This document shows, piece after piece, positions 1 through 17,728 of a DNA stretch of 20,548 bases. Position numbers and translations under genes: made by a program. Location of the stretch: IMG/VR virus record IMGVR_UViG_2872698443_000003, one strand, 5' to 3'. The stretch is from a virus. Its lineage: Duplodnaviria > Heunggongvirae > Uroviricota > Caudoviricetes. The notes beneath the pieces are model-generated. The model was not told the DNA's origin, made no database searches, and worked only from the letters and a program-made list of their open reading frames with translations. Each line of letters begins with the position of its first letter. The first letter of the stretch is position 1.

Positions 1-366
1 ATGATTGATGTCTTAGGACCGGAGAAACGCAGACGGCGTACTACACAGGAAAAGATCGCTATTGTTCAGCAGAGTTTTGAACCGGGAATGACGGTCTCCC
101 TTGTTGCCCGGCAACACGGTGTGGCAGCCAGCCAGTTATTTCTCTGGCGCAAGCAATACCAGGAGGGAAGTCTTACTGCTGTGGCCGCAGGAGAGCAGGT
201 CGTTCCTGCCTCTGAACTTGCTGCTGCCATGAAGCAGATTAAAGAACTCCAGCGCCTGCTCGGCAAAAAAACGATGGAAAATGAACTCCTTAAAGAAGCC
301 GTTGAATACGGGCGTGCAAAAAAGTGGATAGCGCACGCGCCCTTATTGCCCGGGGATGGGGAGTAA
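1..366 (+). CDS. insC: IS2 transposase OrfA (InsC), 121 aa
   Basis: Track ORF 1..366; protein [30 protein letters not shown]... recognised as IS2 InsC. Confidence 0.92.
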
Positions 367-1229
367 GCTTAGTCAGCCGTTGTCTCCGGGTGTCGCGTGC
401 GCAGTTGCACGTAATTCTCAGACGAACCGATGACTGGAAAGATGGTCGCCGCAGCCGTCACTCAGATGATACGGATGTGCTTCTCCGTATACACCATGTT
501 ATCGGAGAGCTGCCCACGTATGGTTATCGTCGGGTATGGGCGCTGCTTCGCAGACAGGCCGAACTTGATGGTATGCCTGCGATCAATGCCAAACGTGTTT
601 ACCGGATCATGCGCCAGAATGCGCTGTTGCTTGAGCGAAAAACCGCTGTACCGCCATCGAAACGGGCACATACTGGCAAAGTGGCCGTGAAAGAAAGCAA
701 TCAACGATGGTGCTCTGACGGGTTCGAGTTCCGCTGTGATAACGGAGAAAAACTGCGAGTCACGTTCGCGCTGGACTGCTGTGACCGTGAGGCACTGCAC
801 TGGGCAGTCACTACGGGCGGCTTCGACAGTGAAACAGTACAGGACGTCATGCTGGGAGCGGTGGAACGCCGCTTCGGCAACGAGCTTCCGGCGTCTCCAG
901 TAGAGTGGCTGACGGATAATGGTTCATGCTACCGGGCTAATGAAACACGGCAGTTTGCCCGGATATTGGGGCTTGAACCGAAGAACACGGCGGTGCGGAG
1001 TCCGGAGAGTAACGGCATAGCAGAGAGCTTCGTGAAAACGATAAAGCGTGACTACATCAGTATCATGCCTAAACCAGACGGGTTAACGGCAGCAAAGAAC
1101 CTTGCAGAGGCGTTCGAGCATTATAACGAATGGCATCCGCATAGTGCACTGGGTTATCGCTCGCCACGGGAATATCTGCGGCAGCAGGCCAGTAATGGGT
1201 TAAGTGATAACAGGTGTCTGGAAATATAG
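324..1229 (+). CDS. insD: IS2 transposase OrfB (InsD), 301 aa, -1 frame relative to insC; OrfAB fusion expected by programmed frameshift
   Basis: Track ORF 324..1229 with DDE-type integrase core; overlaps insC at AAAAAAG 318-324. Confidence 0.92.
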
Positions 1230-1240
1230 GGGCAAATCCA

Positions 1241-1744
1241 CTGCAACGTGCCGGAATCGATTTGGCGATCTACTTTGATGATGCGCCGTCAGCGCAACTC
1301 ACTCATCACTTTCTGATGGATGAAGAAATCCTGCCAGTATGTAGCCCGGAATACGCTCAAAGACATGCTTTAACCAACACGGTAATTAACCTGTGTCACT
1401 GTACGTTGCTCCATGACAGACAGGCATGGAGCAACGACTCCGGTACGGATGAATGGCATAGTTGGGCGCAACATTATGCGGTTAATTTGCCGACATCTTC
1501 TGGAATTGGCTTTGATCGTTCTGATTTAGCTGTTATTGCCGCGATGAATCATATTGGGGTGGCGATGGGAAGAAAACGCCTGGTACAAAAAAGGCTTGCC
1601 AGTGGTGAGCTCGTCGCGCCGTTTGGCGATATGACGGTGAAATGCCATCAGCATTATTACATCACCACATTACCGGGCAGGCAGTGGCCAAAAATTGAAG
1701 CGTTTATTACCTGGCTAAGAGAACAGGTAAAAACCACTTCATAA
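1241..1744 (+). pseudogene. LysR-family transcriptional regulator, C-terminal substrate-binding portion only (about 168 codons); 5' half replaced by IS2
   Basis: Track ORF 1214..1744 begins inside the IS2 right end, so its first codons are IS-derived; no HTH N-terminus. Position next to the torI/attR end matches the K-12 dsdC neighbourhood (synteny inference, not sequence recognition). Confidence 0.6.
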
Positions 1745-1839
1745 TGAATAAAACCACGAGTTCCTGGTGTGCCTTATTCGGCCTGCTAGTTCGAATTTAA
1801 TTTACGGTTTTTATGTGGTTTTAGGGATAAACACAAGGA

Positions 1840-1854
1840 TGGTGTCCCCTGCAG
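1840..1854 (-). other. attR core: TGGTGTCCCCTGCAG, reverse complement of the 3' end of tRNA-Arg (argW)
   Basis: Match to recalled argW 3' terminus CTGCAGGGGACACCA; orientation agrees with minus-strand int at the far end; lies immediately outside torI. Confidence 0.6.
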
Positions 1855-1927
1855 ACATCTACTTGAGGCGGCATGGGATTGATTGGAATGGTGTTTTTTA
1901 GATGTGAAAAATATTTTACCCGCTATT

Positions 1928-2128
1928 TTACCCATTAGCGCGGCTTAAGAGCTTATTTTTGAATTCACAATGGTCACGATATAACCATCTTGCTCGCCCG
2001 TGGATAACTTTGGCTTTTGGCAGGTCGCCGGACTTAATCCGGTCATAGATGAAGGTTTTACCAAAGCCAGTATCAGCCATGATGAATTTCAAATCAACCA
2101 GTGAATCAGGCTGTAGTTCGTGTTGCAT
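1928..2128 (-). CDS. torI: TorI, KplE1 excisionase/recombination directionality factor and Tor response-regulator inhibitor, 66 aa
   Basis: Track ORF 1928..2128; protein MQHELQPDSLVDLKFIMADTGFGKTFIYDRIKSGDLPKAKVIHGRARWLYRDHCEFKNKLLSRANG matches E. coli K-12 TorI as recalled. Confidence 0.9.
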   Translation of the reverse strand: MQHELQPDSLVDLKFIMADTGFGKTFIYDRIKSGDLPKAKVIHGRARWLYRDHCEFKNKLLSRANG

Positions 2129-2171
2129 GAGTGCTATCTCCGAATAGGGAATCGAACCTGCAAATCAGGTA

Positions 2172-2194
2172 ATAAAAAACCGCCATCAGGCGGC
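2172..2194 (-). terminator. Rho-independent terminator (stem CCGCC/GGCGG, loop ATCA, T-run on the minus strand)
   Basis: Hairpin 2180-2193 followed on the minus strand by TTTTTTATT (plus-strand A-run 2174-2179); stop codon of the upstream small ORF lies in the loop. Confidence 0.55.
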
Positions 2195-2353
2195 TTGGTG
2201 TTCTTTCAGTTCTTCAATTCGAATATTGGTTACGTCTGCATGTGCTATCTGCGCCCATATCATCCAGTGGTCATAGCAGTCGTTGATGTTCTCCGCTTCG
2301 ATAACTCTGTTGAATGGTTCTCCATTCCATTCACCTGTGACTCGGAAGTGCAT
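2186..2353 (-). CDS. Small hypothetical protein, 55 aa (MHFRVTGEWNGEPFNRVIEAENINDCYDHWMIWAQIAHADVTNIRIEELKEHQAA), below the track's length cutoff
   Basis: Manual translation; ATG 2353 preceded by GGAG at about 8 nt; ends inside the terminator loop. Confidence 0.45.
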   Translation of the reverse strand: MHFRVTGEWNGEPFNRVIEAENINDCYDHWMIWAQIAHADVTNIRIEELKEHQAA

Positions 2354-2433
2354 TTATCATCTCCATAAAACAAAACTCGCCGTAGCGAGTTCAGATAAAA
2401 GAAATCCATCAATTGGTTAGGGTTTTTGTAATT

Positions 2434-2625
2434 CTACGAATTATGTTGTTTTTTAGCTTCAGCTTTCCATTCATCAAAGGCAGTGTCTTTGTTCATGGTG
2501 CTGATATTGATCTTACGGTCAATATCATATACACGCCACTCACCGTTAGGCCTCTCTTCGCATCTAACTAAGTATGAATTGCCATTAATATCTATGCGTC
2601 TGTCTATTTGCATGAACATTTTCAA
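2434..2625 (-). CDS. Hypothetical prophage protein, 63 aa
   Basis: Track ORF in the leftward operon, no overlap with better ORFs. Confidence 0.5.
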   Translation of the reverse strand: MKMFMQIDRRIDINGNSYLVRCEERPNGEWRVYDIDRKINISTMNKDTAFDEWKAEAKKQHNS

Positions 2626-2736
2626 TTTTCGAACCCTCTTTAATATGCATTTTTTGCTATTTCAGTAGTTTACTATTGATGAGGCGTTATTATACACACT
2701 TCATTAATGCAAGCATCTTTATGCTATGCTACTAAT

Positions 2737-3018
2737 TTAGCAATTGATATTTACCTTTATCGCGTATACCTTAACCGGTTTATCGCCGAAGTGGGGATGT
2801 GTGATTGTCTTGATTTCATATCCACCATACGGAACATCAATTCTACGGCTGGAATCGTCGCGCTTCGGATATCCCTTTGTGATAATCAGGCGGTCATACT
2901 CCCGGAACATAATTCGCTTATTCCAATAGTCATTACACAGGCGATACTCTTCCGTTTTCTCTCCTCGAATCATGGCATCGAAGTATTCACCTTTGACGGC
3001 AAGTTGCAGGTTAGCCAC
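2737..3018 (-). CDS. Hypothetical early-operon protein, 93 aa from GTG start (track ORF extends to 3087)
   Basis: GTG 3018 preceded by AGGAGG at 6 nt; the longer track start would overlap the upstream gene by 77 nt. Confidence 0.55.
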   Translation of the reverse strand: MANLQLAVKGEYFDAMIRGEKTEEYRLCNDYWNKRIMFREYDRLIITKGYPKRDDSSRRIDVPYGGYEIKTITHPHFGDKPVKVYAIKVNINC

Positions 3019-3577
3019 GGTTAACCTCCTGCGGCGGCTCTGGTAGCGGCATCCAGTGTGACGGCTCACATACCCCCTCAACACCATTCATGTAAAAGAA
3101 TTGAAATAACCCTTTACCTTTGTGAAACCCTACCATCTGCTCTTTTGTGTCTGAACAATAAACCAAAACATCTTCTTCGTTTGGCATTCGCTCACTACAG
3201 CTTATCCAACTATCCGGAGTTACCGGAGAGTTGCCCGATAGCTGGTTCAACTTGTAAGTTTGGCTTACAGGTTCGGCTTTCAGTTCTGCTATGCGCTTTT
3301 TTGCTGTTTCCAGCTCATCCAGCAGCGCCAAGACGGTAGCCGGATTGGCTGCGGCGATGAATTCAGCATTGGCCTGCTGTTCCATTTGGAAATCTTCATC
3401 GAAGCCGCTTTCAGGATGCGCTCCTTCAATTCTGCAAATGGGAAGATATCCAACAACGTCACGATGAATTAGCGCATCACCAGCATCAAGCCTCTCCTCT
3501 CCATATTCTAGCGACCACACACCACACGTTGCTTTCTCTGCCGCCTCACGCAGTGCCTGATAGTCAATCTTGCTCAC
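3011..3577 (-). CDS. Ead/Ea22-like N-terminus plus DUF551-like C-terminus, lambdoid early accessory protein, 188 aa
   Basis: Track ORF; N-terminus [24 protein letters not shown]... and C-terminal WISCSERMP...HWMPLPEPP resemble Ea22/DUF551 proteins (recalled family features). Confidence 0.6.
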   Translation of the reverse strand: MSKIDYQALREAAEKATCGVWSLEYGEERLDAGDALIHRDVVGYLPICRIEGAHPESGFDEDFQMEQQANAEFIAAANPATVLALLDELETAKKRIAELKAEPVSQTYKLNQLSGNSPVTPDSWISCSERMPNEEDVLVYCSDTKEQMVGFHKGKGLFQFFYMNGVEGVCEPSHWMPLPEPPQEVNRG

Positions 3578-4056
3578 TGGTCGCCTCCTTTGCGAAGCTG
3601 GTCGGCGAACAAACGTACACTAGACGCTTCACTGCGTAGAAACTTAACGGCATAATCAAAACCACCTCGTTCTGCGTCGTCTGCTCCGTTGTCGAGGTTA
3701 TCTGCGTACATCTCTACCCCCTGCGCCCGTACTTCAGCCAGGAAAGCATCGGTAGATGGGGTGTTAAGTGAAAAGTCCTGTCGGCCTGATTTCAGATACG
3801 CAATGGCGATCTTTGTTGCTGCGCATTCGACAGCGAATTTCTCTTTTTCAGCAGCCATCTTCGCGCACTTGGCCTCAAGGTTATCAATCGTGATTCCAGC
3901 AGAACGACACTCCCGCAACGCCGTTTCCAGTTTTGATTCAAGTTCACCGAACTTACGCACCAGATATTCAGCGTTTGTTTCGTTAACCTTTAAATCACTT
4001 GGGATGCATTTACCTTTCAGAAATCCATCCATCTCAATTAGTGACATTTGTTTCAT
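3574..4056 (-). CDS. Coiled-coil Ea22-like early protein, 160 aa from the internal ATG (track start 4074 is GTG)
   Basis: ATG 4056 overlaps the stop of the upstream 54-aa ORF in an ATGA motif; stop overlaps the next start (ATGA at 3574-3577). Confidence 0.5.
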
Positions 4057-4217
4057 TTCTTCCCACTCCGCCACATTGCATTCAGATATTTGTTGTCATT
4101 AACAGAACCGAAACTATTTCTCTTAAGCAATTCCTCTCTCGATGGCATTGGCTTTACGCGTTGGCGAATAATCATTTCTGCCGGAAGAATGCCGGGATTG
4201 TATGCAAGTCCTCTCAT
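4053..4217 (-). CDS. Small hypothetical protein, 54 aa ([54 protein letters not shown])
   Basis: Manual translation; ATGA overlaps at both ends (4214-4217 and 4053-4056); GGAGAG upstream. Confidence 0.4.
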
Positions 4218-4504
4218 GATTTACTCTCCACGAACTGGTCAACGGCCATGCTAAGTGACACACCTAAAGTATCGATATGCTGCTGAATATCCTGTAGCGT
4301 CCGCGCTTGAGATAACAGAATTTCACGGTTGCATAACTCTTTAACCAGATGCTCAAACTTGCTGTAATAACCGATACGGCTTAGTGTTTCTTTCCCTGCA
4401 TTCTCACCTTCTTTGATAATTCCTCTTTCGCTAAGAATCAGGTCGTGTTTGGTTCCGGTAATAACGTATTTGCCGAGGTCGATGTTTAGCTTCATTGTTT
4501 TCAT
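4214..4504 (-). CDS. Hypothetical protein, 96 aa from ATG 4504 (track ORF 4214..4657 has a longer, overlapping start)
   Basis: ATG 4504 preceded by GAGGAA at about 8 nt and lies 10 nt after the upstream stop. Confidence 0.5.
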
Positions 4505-4514
4505 TGTTAATTCC

Positions 4515-4811
4515 TCAGTCATTACTGATAGCGCCATAGCGTGAGCGGTAATTACGCAGGCGCGGGTCGATATATTCAGGGAAGTGGGTATATGTGGCTT
4601 TGCGGAATGGTCGGATTGATGTCTGGTAAATTCGCTCTCGTTCTTCTTTCTCTGCAAGCCATATACAGTGGCGAAATTCCTTTTCTTCTTTCGTTTCCTG
4701 CGGTAGCGACATTATCCGGTCGTAGTTTTTCCTGAATTTATCCAGCACCTCCGATACGGAATTGCCGGAACAGCGGCGCGCGTCGTCCGCACCATACAGA
4801 GGCGCTGGCAT
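4515..4811 (-). CDS. Hypothetical basic protein, 98 aa
   Basis: Track ORF; AGGAG 6 nt upstream of ATG 4811. Confidence 0.55.
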   Translation of the reverse strand: MPAPLYGADDARRCSGNSVSEVLDKFRKNYDRIMSLPQETKEEKEFRHCIWLAEKEERERIYQTSIRPFRKATYTHFPEYIDPRLRNYRSRYGAISND

Positions 4812-4824
4812 GATTTTCTCCTGA

Positions 4825-5340
4825 TTAAATTGCGTGAATAGCGTGACGAGGGAAGGGGAGGGTTACTGGCGCAAAAGGTATATCGTCGTCAAACTCCATA
4901 GGTGGTTCGCTGTGATTTACCTGCTTCTGAGGCTGCTGTTTTTGTTGCTGACCGTTATTTCGCTGAGGTGAAGACTGTTCATTGCTTCCTTGCTTGCCAC
5001 CAAGCATTTGCATGGTTCCACCAACGCCCACGATAACTTCGGTAGTGAACCGATCCTGTCCGCTTTGATCCTGCCATTTTCTTGTCCGCAATTTTCCTTC
5101 AAGATAAACCTCAGAGCCTTTTCGCAGATATTCGCTGGCAATTTCTGCCAGTTTCCCGCTCATTACCACACGGTGCCACTCCGTCTGCTCCTTTTGCTCT
5201 CCAGTTTGCTTATCACGCCATTGTTCTGACGTAGCAACTATAAGGTTTGCAAATGCCGTTCCTGATGGTGAATATCTGATTTCTGGATCATGCCCAAGGC
5301 GACCAATAATGATCACCTTATTTACGCCTCTACTTCCCAT
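4825..5340 (-). CDS. ssb: Phage single-stranded DNA-binding protein with a 15-residue extension after the canonical DDDIPF tail, 171 aa
   Basis: N-terminal OB-fold region closely matches E. coli SSB as recalled ([51 protein letters not shown]...[10 protein letters not shown]); C-terminus reads ...[24 protein letters not shown]. Confidence 0.88.
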
Positions 5341-6048
5341 TTATGCCGCCTGTTTTAGTTCGTTAACTCTGATGTTCATTACCTGAACGCATTTAGCCTG
5401 CGCATCCTCATTGCCAGCCATTAATTGCCAGTCATGCTGATAACGTTCTATGAGTTTTTTCTTGTCAGTTTCTGTTGATGCATAATCGCTGAAGTCTTTC
5501 AGGATTTGTTCGCAGTCAACCGATGGAGATTTCTGGTTGGTATTTTCTGGTGATGGTTTGTTATCTGATGCTGGGATTGCCCAGCCCGGCAGCGATGGAG
5601 GGAGCCAGTAAAATCCTGTTCCATCCTTCAGTTTTGCCCTGTGCCACCCCTGCTTTTTATCGGGAGATGTTTGTGCGAAACCTTCCTCAAGGTTATACAG
5701 ATACCGACCGATTCCCCACTGAACGGCAGCGCGCTTCATTGCACCGGAACGACCACCTTTGACGGCTTCTACCTGCGTGTTTTCAGCAGCATCCCATTTG
5801 GTTACCCATTCGGAATCAATCTTTATTGATATGCCGCATTCAACGCCGCCGTTGTTGGGAATATCGCGGTATTCATTGCGCCATCCTGCTTTGCCACAAA
5901 CATCGTCAAGGCGTTTCATGATTGCCCGGTTCGTAACATAAGCCAGCACCATAGCCCACACCTTGCCATCGCGTGTTTTACCGCTTTGCTGTATTCGCCA
6001 TTCGATATCTTCAGGGCAGAATGGCTCATCGAATTTGTTCAAATCCAT
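5341..6048 (-). CDS. Rad52/Sak-type single-strand annealing recombinase, 235 aa
   Basis: Track ORF directly upstream of and abutting ssb; motifs resembling the Rad52/22 family (recalled, not searched). Confidence 0.55.
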   Translation of the reverse strand: MDLNKFDEPFCPEDIEWRIQQSGKTRDGKVWAMVLAYVTNRAIMKRLDDVCGKAGWRNEYRDIPNNGGVECGISIKIDSEWVTKWDAAENTQVEAVKGGRSGAMKRAAVQWGIGRYLYNLEEGFAQTSPDKKQGWHRAKLKDGTGFYWLPPSLPGWAIPASDNKPSPENTNQKSPSVDCEQILKDFSDYASTETDKKKLIERYQHDWQLMAGNEDAQAKCVQVMNIRVNELKQAA

Positions 6049-6056
6049 AATTCACC

Positions 6057-6227
6057 TCAGAATGGACATGGCCCAAGGAAATAACGCTGGTTTAATACTT
6101 CGACTCGGGACAAATTAAGGCATACCCGCATTCCTTCGCGGTCACCATTATGGCGATACCAGAGAGCTTTTTGCGTGTACATGCGTCTCTGTAACTTGCT
6201 CTCCTTCACTGTGGTTGCAAGTGACAT
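6057..6227 (-). CDS. Small hypothetical ORF, 56 aa, strong SD (GGAGAT) but overlaps the 6148..6306 ORF out of frame
   Basis: Manual translation (MSLATTVKESKLQRRMYTQKALWYRHNGDREGMRVCLNLSRVEVLNQRYFLGPCPF). Confidence 0.3.
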   Translation of the reverse strand: MSLATTVKESKLQRRMYTQKALWYRHNGDREGMRVCLNLSRVEVLNQRYFLGPCPF

Positions 6228-6306
6228 GAATATCTCCTTCGTTACCGATTAATTCTTTCATCTGACGAATGAATTCTTCGTCTGACCAGTTATCTGTAAA
6301 ACTCAT
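6148..6306 (-). CDS. Small acidic hypothetical protein, 52 aa
   Basis: Manual translation; start ATG overlaps the upstream stop in ATGA at 6303-6306. Confidence 0.35.
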   Translation of the reverse strand: MSFTDNWSDEEFIRQMKELIGNEGDIHVTCNHSEGEQVTETHVHAKSSLVSP

Positions 6307-7574: not shown

Positions 7575-7901
7575 TCAAATAAGTGGTTTGCTGCCTAATT
7601 TCATTTTCTGGCGACCAACACAAGTCACACCCATTTCACTGCGTGGCTTGCTGTACCATGTGCGCTGATTCTTGCGCTCAATACGTTGCAGGTTGCTTTC
7701 AATCTGTTCGTGGTATTCAGCCAGCACCGTAAGGTCTATCGGATTCAGTGCGCTTTCTACTCGTGATTTCGGTTTGCGATTCAGCGAGAGAATAGGGCGG
7801 TTAACTGGTTTTGCGCTTACCCCAACCAACAGGGGATTTGCTGCTTTCCATTGAGCCTGTTTCTCTGCGCGACGTTCGCGGCGGCGTGTTTGTGCATCCA
7901 T
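7575..7901 (-). CDS. N: Antitermination protein N (lambda-like), 108 aa from the internal ATG
   Basis: MDAQTRRRERRAEKQAQWKAANPLLVGVSAKPVNRPILSLNRKPKSRVESALNPIDLTVLAEYH... matches lambda N as recalled; the track ORF's 30 extra N-terminal codons are not part of N. Confidence 0.9.
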   Translation of the reverse strand: MDAQTRRRERRAEKQAQWKAANPLLVGVSAKPVNRPILSLNRKPKSRVESALNPIDLTVLAEYHEQIESNLQRIERKNQRTWYSKPRSEMGVTCVGRQKMKLGSKPLI

Positions 7902-8236: not shown

Positions 8237-8896
8237 TTAACTAAATGTCTCTTCAGGCCACTGGCTGGCGATAACTTTCCCTACAACGGAACAGCTATCA
8301 TTGCATGGGATCATTGGATATTGCGGGTTTAGTGGCTGTAGGAACACCTGACCGCTATCCCTGATCAGTTTCTTGAAGGTAAACTCGTCACCACCAAGTC
8401 TGGCTATGCAGAAATCACCTGGCTCAACAGCCTGCTCAGGGTCAACGAGAATTAACATCCCGTCAGGAAAGCTTGGCTTGGATCCTGTTGGCGCGGTCAT
8501 GGAATTACCTTCAACTTCAAGCCAGAACGCACAATCACTGGCTTTTTTGGTTGTGCTGACCCATCTCTCCGCATCACCTTTGGTAAAGGTTCTAAGCTCA
8601 GGCGAGAACATCCCGGCCTGAACATGAGAAAAAACAGGGTACTCATATTGTTTTTTAACGGGGGCAGATGAGTATTCGCCAACAGGTGAAAATGTACCGT
8701 CGTGGTTGAATGAGACGTTATCAATACCAAGGTATTTAAACACCACACCAATCTCGTCAAGAGATGGATGACGAGATCCGCGCAACCAGTGACCAATTCC
8801 ACCCTGCGTCATACCAAGCTCTTCAGCTAACTTCTCTTGAGTTATGCCGAGCTCTTTCATTCTGGATCTAGCCAGTTCATACCATTTCATTTTCAT
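8237..8896 (-). CDS. cI: CI-type prophage repressor: lambda-identical C-terminal dimerisation/autocleavage domain, divergent N-terminal HTH domain
   Basis: From ...[39 protein letters not shown] onward the protein matches lambda CI as recalled; N-terminus ([37 protein letters not shown]) does not. Start is ambiguous (ATG 8896, 8890 or 8932; possibly leaderless). Confidence 0.85.
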
Positions 8897-8952
8897 ACCC
8901 TTATTATTACGCTCTGTACTAAAACCATCCATGCACAAGATGTATTTTTTGT

Positions 8953-15745: not shown

Positions 15746-15930
15746 ACGCCACAATTCAAACGATACCAGAGCTTCTTATCCAGACACGAGGCAATCAGAC
15801 CGAAGTGGCGAGGATGCTTTCCTGCGCAAGAGGAACAGTGCTCAAGTACAACCGAGACAGCAAAGGTGAGCGTCACGTAATAGTTAACGGCGTCCTGATG
15901 GTCAAACAGGGCAAGAGGGGAAGACCATGA
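15742..15930 (+). CDS. ninH: NinH, 62 aa
   Basis: TIPELLIQTRGNQTEVARMLSCARGTVLKYNRDSKGERHVIVNGVLMV resembles lambda NinH as recalled. Confidence 0.75.
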   Translation: MNATIQTIPELLIQTRGNQTEVARMLSCARGTVLKYNRDSKGERHVIVNGVLMVKQGKRGRP

Positions 15931-16136
15931 GACTCGAAAGCGTAGCTAAATTTCACTCGCCAAAAAGCCCGATGATGAGCGACTCACCACGGGCCACGGC
16001 TTCTGACTCTCTTTCCGGTACTGATGTGATGGCTGCTATGGGGATGGCGCAATCACAAGCCGGATTCGGAATGGCTGCATTCTGCGGTAAGCATGAACTC
16101 AGCCAGAACGACAAACAAAAGGCTATCAACTATCTG
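15927..16136 (+). pseudogene. Q: Late antiterminator Q, N-terminal 70 codons only, interrupted by IS1
   Basis: MRLESVAKFHSPKSPMMSDSPRATASDSLSGTDVMAAMGMAQSQAGFGMAAFCGKHELSQNDKQKAINYL matches lambda Q residues 1-70 as recalled; the track ORF then reads into the IS1 end. Confidence 0.9.
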
Positions 16137-16191
16137 GGTAATGCTGCCAACTTACTGATTTAGTGTATGATGGTGTTTTTGAGGTGCTCCA

Positions 16192-16467
16192 GTGGCTTCT
16201 GTTTCTATCAGCTGTCCCTCCTGTTCAGCTACTGACGGGGTGGTGCGTAACGGCAAAAGCACCGCCGGACATCAGCGCTATCTCTGCTCTCACTGCCGTA
16301 AAACATGGCAACTGCAGTTCACTTACACCGCTTCTCAACCCGGTACGCACCAGAAAATCATTGATATGGCCATGAATGGCGTTGGATGCCGGGCAACTGC
16401 CCGCATTATGGGCGTTGGCCTCAACACGATTTTACGTCACTTAAAAAACTCAGGCCGCAGTCGGTAA
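16192..16467 (+). CDS. insA: IS1 InsA, 91 aa
   Basis: [43 protein letters not shown]... recognised. Confidence 0.95.
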
Positions 16468-16889
16468 CCTCGCGCATACAGCCGGGCAGTGACGTCATCG
16501 TCTGCGCGGAAATGGACGAACAGTGGGGCTATGTCGGGGCTAAATCGCGCCAGCGCTGGCTGTTTTACGCGTATGACAGGCTCCGGAAGACGGTTGTTGC
16601 GCACGTATTCGGTGAACGCACGATGGCGACGCTGGGGCGTCTTATGAGCCTGCTGTCACCCTTTGACGTGGTGATATGGATGACGGATGGCTGGCCGCTG
16701 TATGAATCCCGCCTGAAGGGAAAGCTGCACGTAATCAGCAAGCGATATACGCAGCGAATTGAGCGGCATAACCTGAATCTGAGGCAGCACCTGGCACGGC
16801 TGGGACGGAAGTCGCTGTCGTTCTCAAAATCGGTGGAGCTGCATGACAAAGTCATCGGGCATTATCTGAACATAAAACACTATCAATAA
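16386..16889 (+). CDS. insB: IS1 InsB' transposase reading frame, 167 aa (expressed as InsAB' by -1 frameshift)
   Basis: Track ORF matches IS1 InsB as recalled. Confidence 0.95.
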
Positions 16890-16969
16890 GTTGGAGTCAT
16901 TACCGTAATGTTGTTCTGAGAAATACTCATATTGGTTGCCTTGATCTTTTTTCATACGATAACACGCAG

Positions 16970-17728
16970 GTGCTTGTAAAAACCAATACCAATAAAATTA
17001 GCTATGGTAACTCATATGAAAAAATTAATTTCCCGGGAGTTCAGATTCATGATTTTAACGCTATGGTTGAGACTTGGACATCATCTATATCAATAGATAA
17101 TCTTGTTATAAATGGTAGTGGTAGGTTATCTAGAATATCTAACTCATTTACATTTAATACGACATCATCGGATTCTCGCGTATTTGATTTTTGGCAGTAT
17201 ACATCTGATGGAGCTGCTGTTTGTAATATTTACAGAAATGAAATTAGCTCAGATTCTCAGTTTCATCATGATGGTACAACTATAGGAGTGGTGATACCAA
17301 TAGCAAATACCGATAATAAGACACTGCGAGTTGTTATTGATAAAAATGTTTTTAAATGTCAAGGGAAAGAAGTCACATTATCTTTCATGGCTGTAAATGG
17401 GTTGCCATCTGTTCAAACTAAAATTTCCGTGAACTTGATATTGAGCTATTCTTCATCATTAGGCGTTCAAAGAGTATATTCATTCGGTGAGTTTGATATT
17501 GGTAGTTCATGGGGGTTGAAAAAATTCACATTAGCAATACCTTTTGAAGGTCTTGTGTCCGCAAGCGATGCGAATGCTTATTTATCCTTTTCGCTTCCAA
17601 AATCACAAGAAGTAAACATCATCATAGCCAATGTTAATTTATGCAAAGGAAATGTTGCTGTGCAGGGGCCGAGTGATTTAAAGGATTGGGATTTACTATC
17701 TAGATCAATTGCATACTACGGTAGTTAA
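16970..17728 (+). CDS. Low-GC Ser/Thr/Asn-rich hypothetical protein, 252 aa; possibly the C-terminal receptor-binding part of a tail fibre or another surface-interaction protein, probably 5'-truncated
   Basis: Track ORF with GTG start; the frame is open upstream into the IS1 right end (no stop from 16772 by my reading); composition resembles fibre distal domains. Function not recognised. Confidence 0.4.
   Translation: MLVKTNTNKISYGNSYEKINFPGVQIHDFNAMVETWTSSISIDNLVINGSGRLSRISNSFTFNTTSSDSRVFDFWQYTSDGAAVCNIYRNEISSDSQFHHDGTTIGVVIPIANTDNKTLRVVIDKNVFKCQGKEVTLSFMAVNGLPSVQTKISVNLILSYSSSLGVQRVYSFGEFDIGSSWGLKKFTLAIPFEGLVSASDANAYLSFSLPKSQEVNIIIANVNLCKGNVAVQGPSDLKDWDLLSRSIAYYGS

Follow-up and report, generated by a model that had tools for sequence, protein, structure and literature searches.

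Abc2 (anti-RecBCD protein 2) of phage P22 binds RecC and steers RecBCD to the phage recombinase, and Pro68 is the residue engaged by the host protein PpiB (PMC9836394). The structure of P22 Abc2 has also been solved (PDB 8b1t/8b1u). A 2026 preprint on the P2 OLD nuclease, a tetramer, reported that Oad2 (Gp27 of phage HK446) binds this nuclease and blocks its activation, and that Oad2 alone is sufficient for the phenotype and rescues OLD toxicity (bioRxiv 10.64898/2026.07.10.737580). In the same study the triggers of OLD were RecBCD inhibitors and Gp33 of HK75 and HK446, the HK446 protein being a putative RecBCD manipulator, and Oad2 was related to P22 EaE and in some cases fused to EaD/Ea22. 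Here we examine eight minus-strand genes that lie between ssb and torI in a 20,548-nucleotide (nt) stretch of Caudoviricetes DNA (IMG/VR record IMGVR_UViG_2872698443_000003; the whole stretch is called the window, and all positions are counted from its first letter). These are abc2, a DUF5405 gene, a DUF2737 gene, an Oad2-family gene for a protein of 160 amino acids (aa), an Ea22-DUF551 gene, an ASCH-like gene, orf63 and orf55. The region is very probably the non-essential accessory tail of the pL operon, built from cassettes that include anti-defence genes, in an HK620/Sf6-type (Lederbergvirus-like) prophage next to dsdC.

The genes gp30-gp29-gp28-gp27 of HK446 have the order abc2, DUF5405, DUF2737, Oad2 that is found in the window, with the same 4-nt overlaps. 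Identity to the window is 98% for Abc2, 97% for the DUF5405 protein, 100% for the DUF2737 protein and ~97% for the N-terminal 70 aa of the fourth protein, and in both phages the Gp33 trigger or its homologue is encoded upstream in the same operon. The fourth protein is only 51% identical overall because two variable cassettes in its gene, V1 and V2, differ. Additionally, HK446 has the excisionase-like gp26 after gp27, whereas the window has the Ea22-DUF551 gene, the ASCH-like gene, orf63 and orf55 before torI, and the recombinase module is Erf with gp31 in HK446 but a Rad52-like protein with SSB in the window.

HK620 (hkaD-hkaJ) and Sf6 (gp19-gp25), which are P22-like and have an argW/torI-type site, have accessory regions in the same pL-distal position and with the same junction style as the window. 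Abc2 of the window is 97% identical to that of both phages, hkaH and hkaI of HK620 are 78% and 96% identical to their counterparts, gp24 of Sf6 is the DUF5405 gene, and "boundary sequences" are annotated at the same places. HK620 differs in that it is without the DUF5405 gene, the ASCH-like gene and orf63, and Sf6 differs in that a Lar-like gene replaces the ASCH-like gene and gp22, which is unrelated, replaces the Oad2-family gene.

The likeness to P22 and lambda is more partial. The P22 ea region (eaC to abc2) has overlapping junctions, an Abc2 that is 92% identical and an orf56 (DUF2737) product that is 74% identical to those of the window, and the C-terminus of P22 EaA is a DUF551 domain with 40% identity to that of the window. 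P22 EaE has the TPxTDAFLAE motif in common with the 160-aa protein, although identity is only ~35%, and P22 carries abc1 upstream of abc2 and is without the DUF5405 gene, the ASCH-like gene, orf63 and orf55. The lambda exo-xis region (orf60a, orf63, orf61, orf73, ea22, ea8.5, orf55) occupies the same operon position, from the recombination genes to xis, with orf55 and tL4 97-100% identical to the window and an Ea22-family gene in both. The lambda genes orf60a, orf63, orf61, orf73 and ea8.5 have no counterpart in the window, the orf63 of the window is unrelated to lambda orf63, and the two Ea22-family proteins have only the Pfam-level N-terminal region in common, as the C-terminal part of the window protein is DUF551.

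Genomic setting and gene families

A prophage in E. coli S163-2 (NZ_CP058709) matches the window at 100% identity, and its annotation around the region includes N, ral, kil, a Rad52-like gene, ssb and torI. Lambdoid prophage sequence takes up the window from torI (1928-2128) on. Upstream of the eight genes, in minus-strand order, are the repressor gene (8237-8932), N (7575-7901), ral, kil, the Rad52-like annealase gene and ssb (4825-5340). The eight genes are on the same strand and downstream of all of these, so the placement in an early-left (pL/N) operon that had been proposed in a preliminary description of this DNA is correct, and its eight open reading frames (ORFs) between ssb and torI were all recovered (Table 1). 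The torI end of the prophage has 98% DNA identity to HK620 and Sf6, both classified as Lederbergvirus, and the TorI protein is 100% identical to TorI of these phages. Just outside this end an IS3-family element (1-1744, plus strand) breaks a LysR-type gene, which is presumably dsdC because dsdX and dsdA adjoin it.

Table 1. Genes, junctions, terminators and cassettes of the accessory region, with window positions
Feature	Position	Strand	Basis or remark
abc2 (anti-RecBCD protein 2), 98 aa	4515-4811	minus	PF11043, phrog_656, PDB
DUF5405 gene, 96 aa	4214-4504	minus	PF17399, phrog_154
DUF2737 gene (= hkaI, HK97 gp38, P22 orf56), 54 aa	4053-4217	minus	PF10930
Oad2/EaE/hkaH-family gene, 160 aa	3574-4056	minus	phrog_614, BLASTP to Oad2
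Ea22-like + DUF551 fusion gene, 188 aa	3011-3577	minus	PF13935, PF04448
ASCH-like (PUA-like beta-barrel) gene, 93 aa, GTG start	2737-3018	minus	fold and motif
orf63, small gene, 61-63 aa, without PGAP annotation	2434-2625	minus	phrog_16329
orf55 (= lambda/434 Orf55), 55 aa	2186-2353	minus	phrog_676
ATGA stop/start overlap, DUF5405 to DUF2737	4214-4217	minus	sequence reading
ATGA stop/start overlap, DUF2737 to Oad2-family gene	4053-4056	minus	sequence reading
GTGA overlap, Oad2-family to Ea22-like gene, AAGGAGG before start	3574-3577	minus	sequence reading
8-nt overlap GTGGCTAA, Ea22-DUF551 to ASCH-like gene, AGGAGG before start	3011-3018	minus	sequence reading
Variable cassette V1 of Oad2-family gene, aa 71-98	3763-3844	minus	at least 7 unrelated length-variable inserts, invariant flanks
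Variable cassette V2 of Oad2-family gene, aa 114-149	3611-3719	minus	common to HK75 and HK620 alleles, differs from Oad2
Conserved islands around V2	3720-3762 (43-nt motif), 3545-3610 (3' end and junction)	minus	DNA homology
AT-rich 329-bp insert with orf63	2408-2736	minus	GC 34-37%
tL4 intrinsic terminator	2373-2392	minus	terminator scan; same sequence is t-L4 in phages 434 and HK022
Hairpin and U-tract terminator after orf55	2177-2196	minus	fold energy -13 kcal/mol, z -3.6

The same description had recognized family resemblance only in an "Ea22/DUF551-like pair". This proved too narrow, as all eight ORFs match PHROG families at E <= 1e-30, and the pair is not two genes but two domains within one protein. 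Matches above the curated Pfam cut-off were obtained for four of the eight (Abc2, DUF5405, DUF2737 and Ead_Ea22 with DUF551), and six belong to families that have a name (Abc2, the two Pfam DUFs, Ea22 "V2", the ASCH fold and lambda Orf55). An NCBIfam scan of nine proteins gave no matches, an Rfam scan of 1700-5400 at E <= 1 gave no RNA family, and PDB sequence searches with the DUF5405, 160-aa, Ea22-DUF551, ASCH-like and orf63 proteins gave nothing significant. PADLOC returned no meaningful defence-system match; its one marginal result paired a coiled-coil stretch of the 160-aa protein with a DRT model (E 0.0015).

Abc2 of the window matches PF11043 with 203.6 bits (cut-off 25, E 4e-61) as well as phrog_656, and it matches PDB 8b1t/8b1u at E 1.8e-55. 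Pro68 is kept (SIRP68F in the window, AIRP68F in P22). Judged by its 92% identity to the P22 protein, it would bind RecC and steer RecBCD to the phage recombinase. The DUF5405 protein matches PF17399 with 23.7 bits (cut-off 21.6) and phrog_154 at 1e-31; it is 96-97% identical to the Sf6, 720R6 and HK446 versions, and its counterparts include the P2 Orf83 type, Sf6 gp24 and HK446 gp29. The PHROG label "replication initiation protein" is backed by nothing and is treated here as an inherited annotation. PGAP starts this gene at the ATG at 4495 (93 aa) and HK446 and Sf6 use the in-frame ATG at 4504 (96 aa), which looks like the better start as a GAGGA overlapping the stop codon of abc2 precedes it by 7 nt. 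The DUF2737 protein matches PF10930 at 4e-30. At the other end of the string, the orf55 product is 100% identical over 55 aa to lambda NP_597778 and matches phrog_676 at 7e-40, and its gene lies between tL4 and the excisionase gene, with tL4 upstream as in phages 434 and HK022. A purely computational model presents Orf55 as a modulator or binder of RNA polymerase similar to T7 Gp2 (PMC8614690). Orf55, DUF5405 and DUF2737 are real genes.

The Ea22-DUF551 protein matches PF13935 over residues 2-102 (83.2 bits, cut-off 27, E 3e-23) and PF04448 over residues 123-183 (69.5 bits, cut-off 22, E 4.5e-19). An Ead_Ea22 N-terminal/coiled-coil region followed by a DUF551 C-terminal domain is the layout of Ea22 "V2", a variant defined by DUF551 as the variable C-terminal domain, and Ea22 proteins are tetrameric and bias development to lysogeny (PMC10834534). 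Direct similarity to lambda Ea22 was not found at E < 0.01. The window protein is a coiled-coil member of this family, whose members push toward lysogeny.

The AlphaFold2 model of the ASCH-like protein (pLDDT 88) has the ASCH beta-barrel fold, and a Foldseek search with this model gave agreement with ASCH, although it was weak. Residues G19, K21, E24 and R26 (GxKxxExR) and Y12 are invariant in 33 homologues, and the motif lies between predicted helix H10-17 and strand E23-27; in ASCH proteins the GxKxxExR octapeptide is found in the alpha1-beta2 region (PMC6803910). ASCH proteins of the GKTR and GKER types are reported to remove N4-acetylcytidine (ac4C) from tRNA, phage members not being among those assayed (bioRxiv 10.64898/2026.02.27.708502). 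Judged by fold and motif, the window protein is likely to bind a modified nucleotide or RNA, or to remove an acyl group from it. Additionally, a 168-aa phage protein in BFVD labelled "restriction alleviation protein" has the same fold (E 4e-6); together with the Lar-like gene in the corresponding slot of Sf6 this is a hint, and only a hint, of a link to restriction alleviation.

The insert with orf63 is present in 27-30 of 5,426 E. coli genomes (~0.5% of complete genomes) and, among phages, in a single record; none of these annotates it. The orf63 product matches phrog_16329 at 1e-47, and relatives of 60-62 aa with 49% and 36% identity retain FMQIDR..G..VR..E.P.G.W..D, which argues that this small gene is probably real. 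A dN/dS analysis was precluded by the near-clonality of its close family. Two candidates were set aside: a TATAAT picked by eye as a promoter for the insert lacks both a usable -35 box and an extended -10, and a resemblance of residues 4-38 to a CVNH lectin half-repeat (phmmer E 8.6e-5) had an hhalign probability of 26% and no Pfam match, which makes it a weak lead.

The Oad2-family gene and its variable cassettes

The 160-aa protein is 51% identical to HK446 gp27 (BLASTP, E 6e-55) and 77% identical to the HK75 allele, which has 54% identity to Oad2, in agreement with the published account (bioRxiv 10.64898/2026.07.10.737580). It matches phrog_614 at 2e-50, and its gene occupies the genomic slot of Oad2, three genes past abc2 and directly after the DUF2737 gene with an ATGA overlap. 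The N-terminal 70 aa, a 14-residue motif and a QLRKGGxQ motif are shared by the two proteins. The EaE/hkaH prophage family to which they belong contains more than 7,500 database clusters, and in the family alignment residues 1-70 and 99-160 are near-invariant while the centre, of which at least seven unrelated versions occur, varies both in length and in sequence. In DNA, the stretch that starts with abc2 and reaches codon 70 of the Oad2-family gene has 96% homology to HK446; the homology ends at 3845 and resumes only at 3720-3762 and 3545-3610, and these stops and restarts define the two cassettes V1 and V2. One further family, phrog_368, is matched by the 160-aa protein as well as by its Ea22-like neighbour, which agrees with the reported Oad2-EaD/Ea22 fusions.

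The suggestion in the preliminary description that this part of the operon holds host-takeover or anti-defence genes is broadly upheld, as abc2 is the P22 anti-RecBCD gene and the 160-aa gene is an Oad2 homologue in the same slot. The window allele has the N-terminal 70 residues of Oad2 but other variable cassettes, from which we infer a different specificity. It would most likely neutralize an OLD-like or another RecBCD-guarding defence, and activity against P2 OLD itself appears doubtful.

An ORF that PGAP did not annotate (6148-6306, minus strand) is 88% identical over 52 aa to HK446/HK75 Gp33 (tblastn), and its ATG overlaps the kil stop codon as ATGA (6303-6306). One operon thus encodes a homologue of the reported OLD trigger together with a protein of the inhibitor family.

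Overlaps, terminators and cassette boundaries

The four junctions that had been proposed as stop/start overlaps (4214-4217, 4053-4056, 3574-3577 and 3011-3018) read exactly as claimed. They do not link all eight genes, as had also been claimed, but join only five (DUF5405, DUF2737, the 160-aa gene, Ea22-DUF551 and the ASCH-like gene). The other three, abc2, orf63 and orf55, are set apart from their neighbours by gaps of 10-383 nt, two of which contain terminators. The abc2 stop is 10 nt from the DUF5405 start (19 nt with the PGAP start), the ASCH-like gene is separated from orf63 by 111 nt within the AT-rich insert, and orf63 from orf55 by 80 nt, with tL4 preceding orf55. The tL4 sequence occurs in 2,219 of the 5,426 E. 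coli genomes. The terminator that follows orf55 sits within the conserved torI-proximal boundary sequence, and the HK620 version of this sequence also contains a pI/cII site.

The overlap type of these junctions recurs in HK620, Sf6, 720R6, P22 and HK446 despite differing flanking genes. The identical 8-nt overlap (GTGGCTAA) is found in 720R6, and the ATGA junction between the DUF2737 gene and the Oad2-family gene is also found in HK446 and HK620. Read across these phage sequences, the overlaps are evidently selected and not accidental. They are the norm across the prophage and not peculiar to this region: the RefSeq annotation of the whole window has 17 overlapping adjacent same-strand pairs, eight of them with exact 4-nt overlaps, and five of these eight are outside the region, in the nin region and the lysis genes.

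Translational coupling of all eight genes had been considered likely. The overlaps are compatible with coupling, but this applies to at most five genes, each of which has its own Shine-Dalgarno sequence, strongest at the two GTG starts (AAGGAGG and AGGAGG). No occluding RNA hairpins were found at the overlap junctions (fold z -0.8 to +1.3), which with the Shine-Dalgarno sequence at each gene leaves strict coupling unproven. The Shine-Dalgarno sequences and unremarkable folds favour reinitiation or independent initiation over coupling by unmasking of structure, for which there is no support, and coupling by termination-reinitiation is plausible.

DNA homology to the reference phages breaks at or beside the gene junctions. 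Homology to Sf6 ends at 3576, and homology to 720R6, which has the ASCH-like gene in common with the window, resumes at 2746, 9 nt beyond the stop of that gene (2737). The orf63 insert starts at 2408, and tL4 follows it directly in the direction of transcription. In HK620 and P22 the homology breaks off at 4218 and is taken up again at 4501, which makes the DUF5405 gene a precise cassette. These breaks indicate a mosaic region, transcribed from pL and made up of cassettes that can be swapped. Only 3 of the 5,426 E. coli genomes have this gene combination over at least 80% of its length, and 3,760 have some part of it.

Short remnants are found in phages where a gene is missing. Sf6 (locus 1924-1974) keeps a 51-nt remnant, 96% identical, of window 2984-3034 (the end of DUF551 and the start of the ASCH-like gene) downstream of its Lar-like gene, which looks like the scar of a cassette replacement at that slot. 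HK446 (locus 5480-5508) retains ~29 nt from the beginning of the Ea22 reading frame (window 3545-3573) though an Ea22-like gene is absent after gp27. This remnant is the Sf6 "boundary sequence" bsq3 and is also 86% conserved in lambda.

Competing explanations and biological meaning

In the reading that we prefer, N-antiterminated pL transcripts would pass, after induction or infection, through the recombination genes and then through the accessory string and tL4, and the accessory genes would be independent, horizontally swappable cassettes. The 4-8 nt overlaps may give compact translation of five genes by termination-reinitiation, and because homology to other phages breaks off at the same places, they may also mark the module boundaries used in mosaic recombination. 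Several observations weigh against parts of this. The HK75 homologue, at 77% the closest allele tested, was reported to be inactive against P2 OLD (bioRxiv 10.64898/2026.07.10.737580), so an anti-defence role for the window allele is an extrapolation. The AlphaFold2 model of the 160-aa protein is all-helical, but with a pLDDT of 60 its quality does not suffice for a fold search. The ASCH-like protein scores 15.7 bits against PF04266, under the cut-off of 21.2, and a PDB profile search and an hhalign comparison with YqfB found nothing, so that its ASCH membership is proposed from fold and motif, with sub-threshold sequence matches. A Q-like late antiterminator gene (15927-17327, plus strand) is interrupted by IS1A; the prophage is thus probably defective for late gene expression, and its genes may seldom be used.

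Four overlaps in succession, with junction types that are kept in relatives, could also mean that the five linked genes encode subunits of one multi-protein machine whose stoichiometry is fixed by the overlaps. We regard this as highly improbable, as the genes occur independently (DUF5405 is absent from HK620 and P22, in Sf6 the ASCH slot is filled by a Lar-like gene and the Oad2 slot by a different one, and in HK446 the Oad2 gene ends the string before gp26, with no Ea22-like or ASCH gene after it). Oad2 alone was moreover sufficient for the phenotype (bioRxiv 10.64898/2026.07.10.737580), and overlaps are just as frequent in the unrelated nin and lysis genes. It is likewise very unlikely that this is a "moron" or a prophage-encoded host defence expressed in the lysogen, and not a counter-defence, whether the whole region is meant or no more than the orf63 insert. 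Every gene is co-oriented with pL and downstream of N, a scan of the minus strand found no sigma-70-like promoter upstream of orf63, and the only PADLOC result was the marginal coiled-coil match, although the orf63 module is rare, low in GC and followed by a terminator, and Ea22-family proteins favour lysogeny (PMC10834534).

The documented pro-lysogenic activity of Ea22 (PMC10834534) bears on another explanation, in which the target of the 160-aa and Ea22-DUF551 proteins, as of lambda Ea22, would be the choice between lysis and lysogeny and not host immunity. Both proteins share Ea22-family modules (phrog_368), Oad2-EaD/Ea22 fusions have been reported and the HK75 allele is inactive against OLD, whereas Oad2 directly binds OLD and relieves its toxicity (bioRxiv 10.64898/2026.07.10.737580), and the hypervariability of the cassettes is more in keeping with an arms race than with a regulatory target that is conserved. 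We consider this explanation unlikely, if worth keeping in mind. A bolder extension of the anti-defence reading, which we hold to be distinctly unlikely, is that the Oad2-family gene encodes a programmable anti-defence scaffold, in which the constant ends oligomerize and V1 and V2 choose the ATPase-nuclease to be neutralized, OLD-like or otherwise RecBCD-guarding, with the co-transcribed ASCH-like protein as a second counter-measure. If this were true, the rare V1 allele of the window would be aimed at a defence other than P2 OLD, and the ASCH-like protein would act on host tRNA modification (e.g. removal of N4-acetylcytidine), countering tRNA-cleaving immunity.

The region itself is already known, as the same sequence and gene families are in RefSeq, PHROGs and the literature, and its content will not surprise a specialist. 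Its main value is as an additional natural allele in the Oad2 cassette series. Read as an accessory tail of the pL operon with anti-defence cassettes, it suggests that temperate phages may pack a trigger-prone recombination module (Gp33-like protein, Abc2) and fast-evolving counter-measures (the Oad2-family allele) in one antiterminated operon. The cassette structure of the Oad2-family gene, together with the published contrast between the HK446 allele, which is active, and the HK75 allele, which is not, would provide a natural allelic series for mapping the residues that determine anti-defence specificity.

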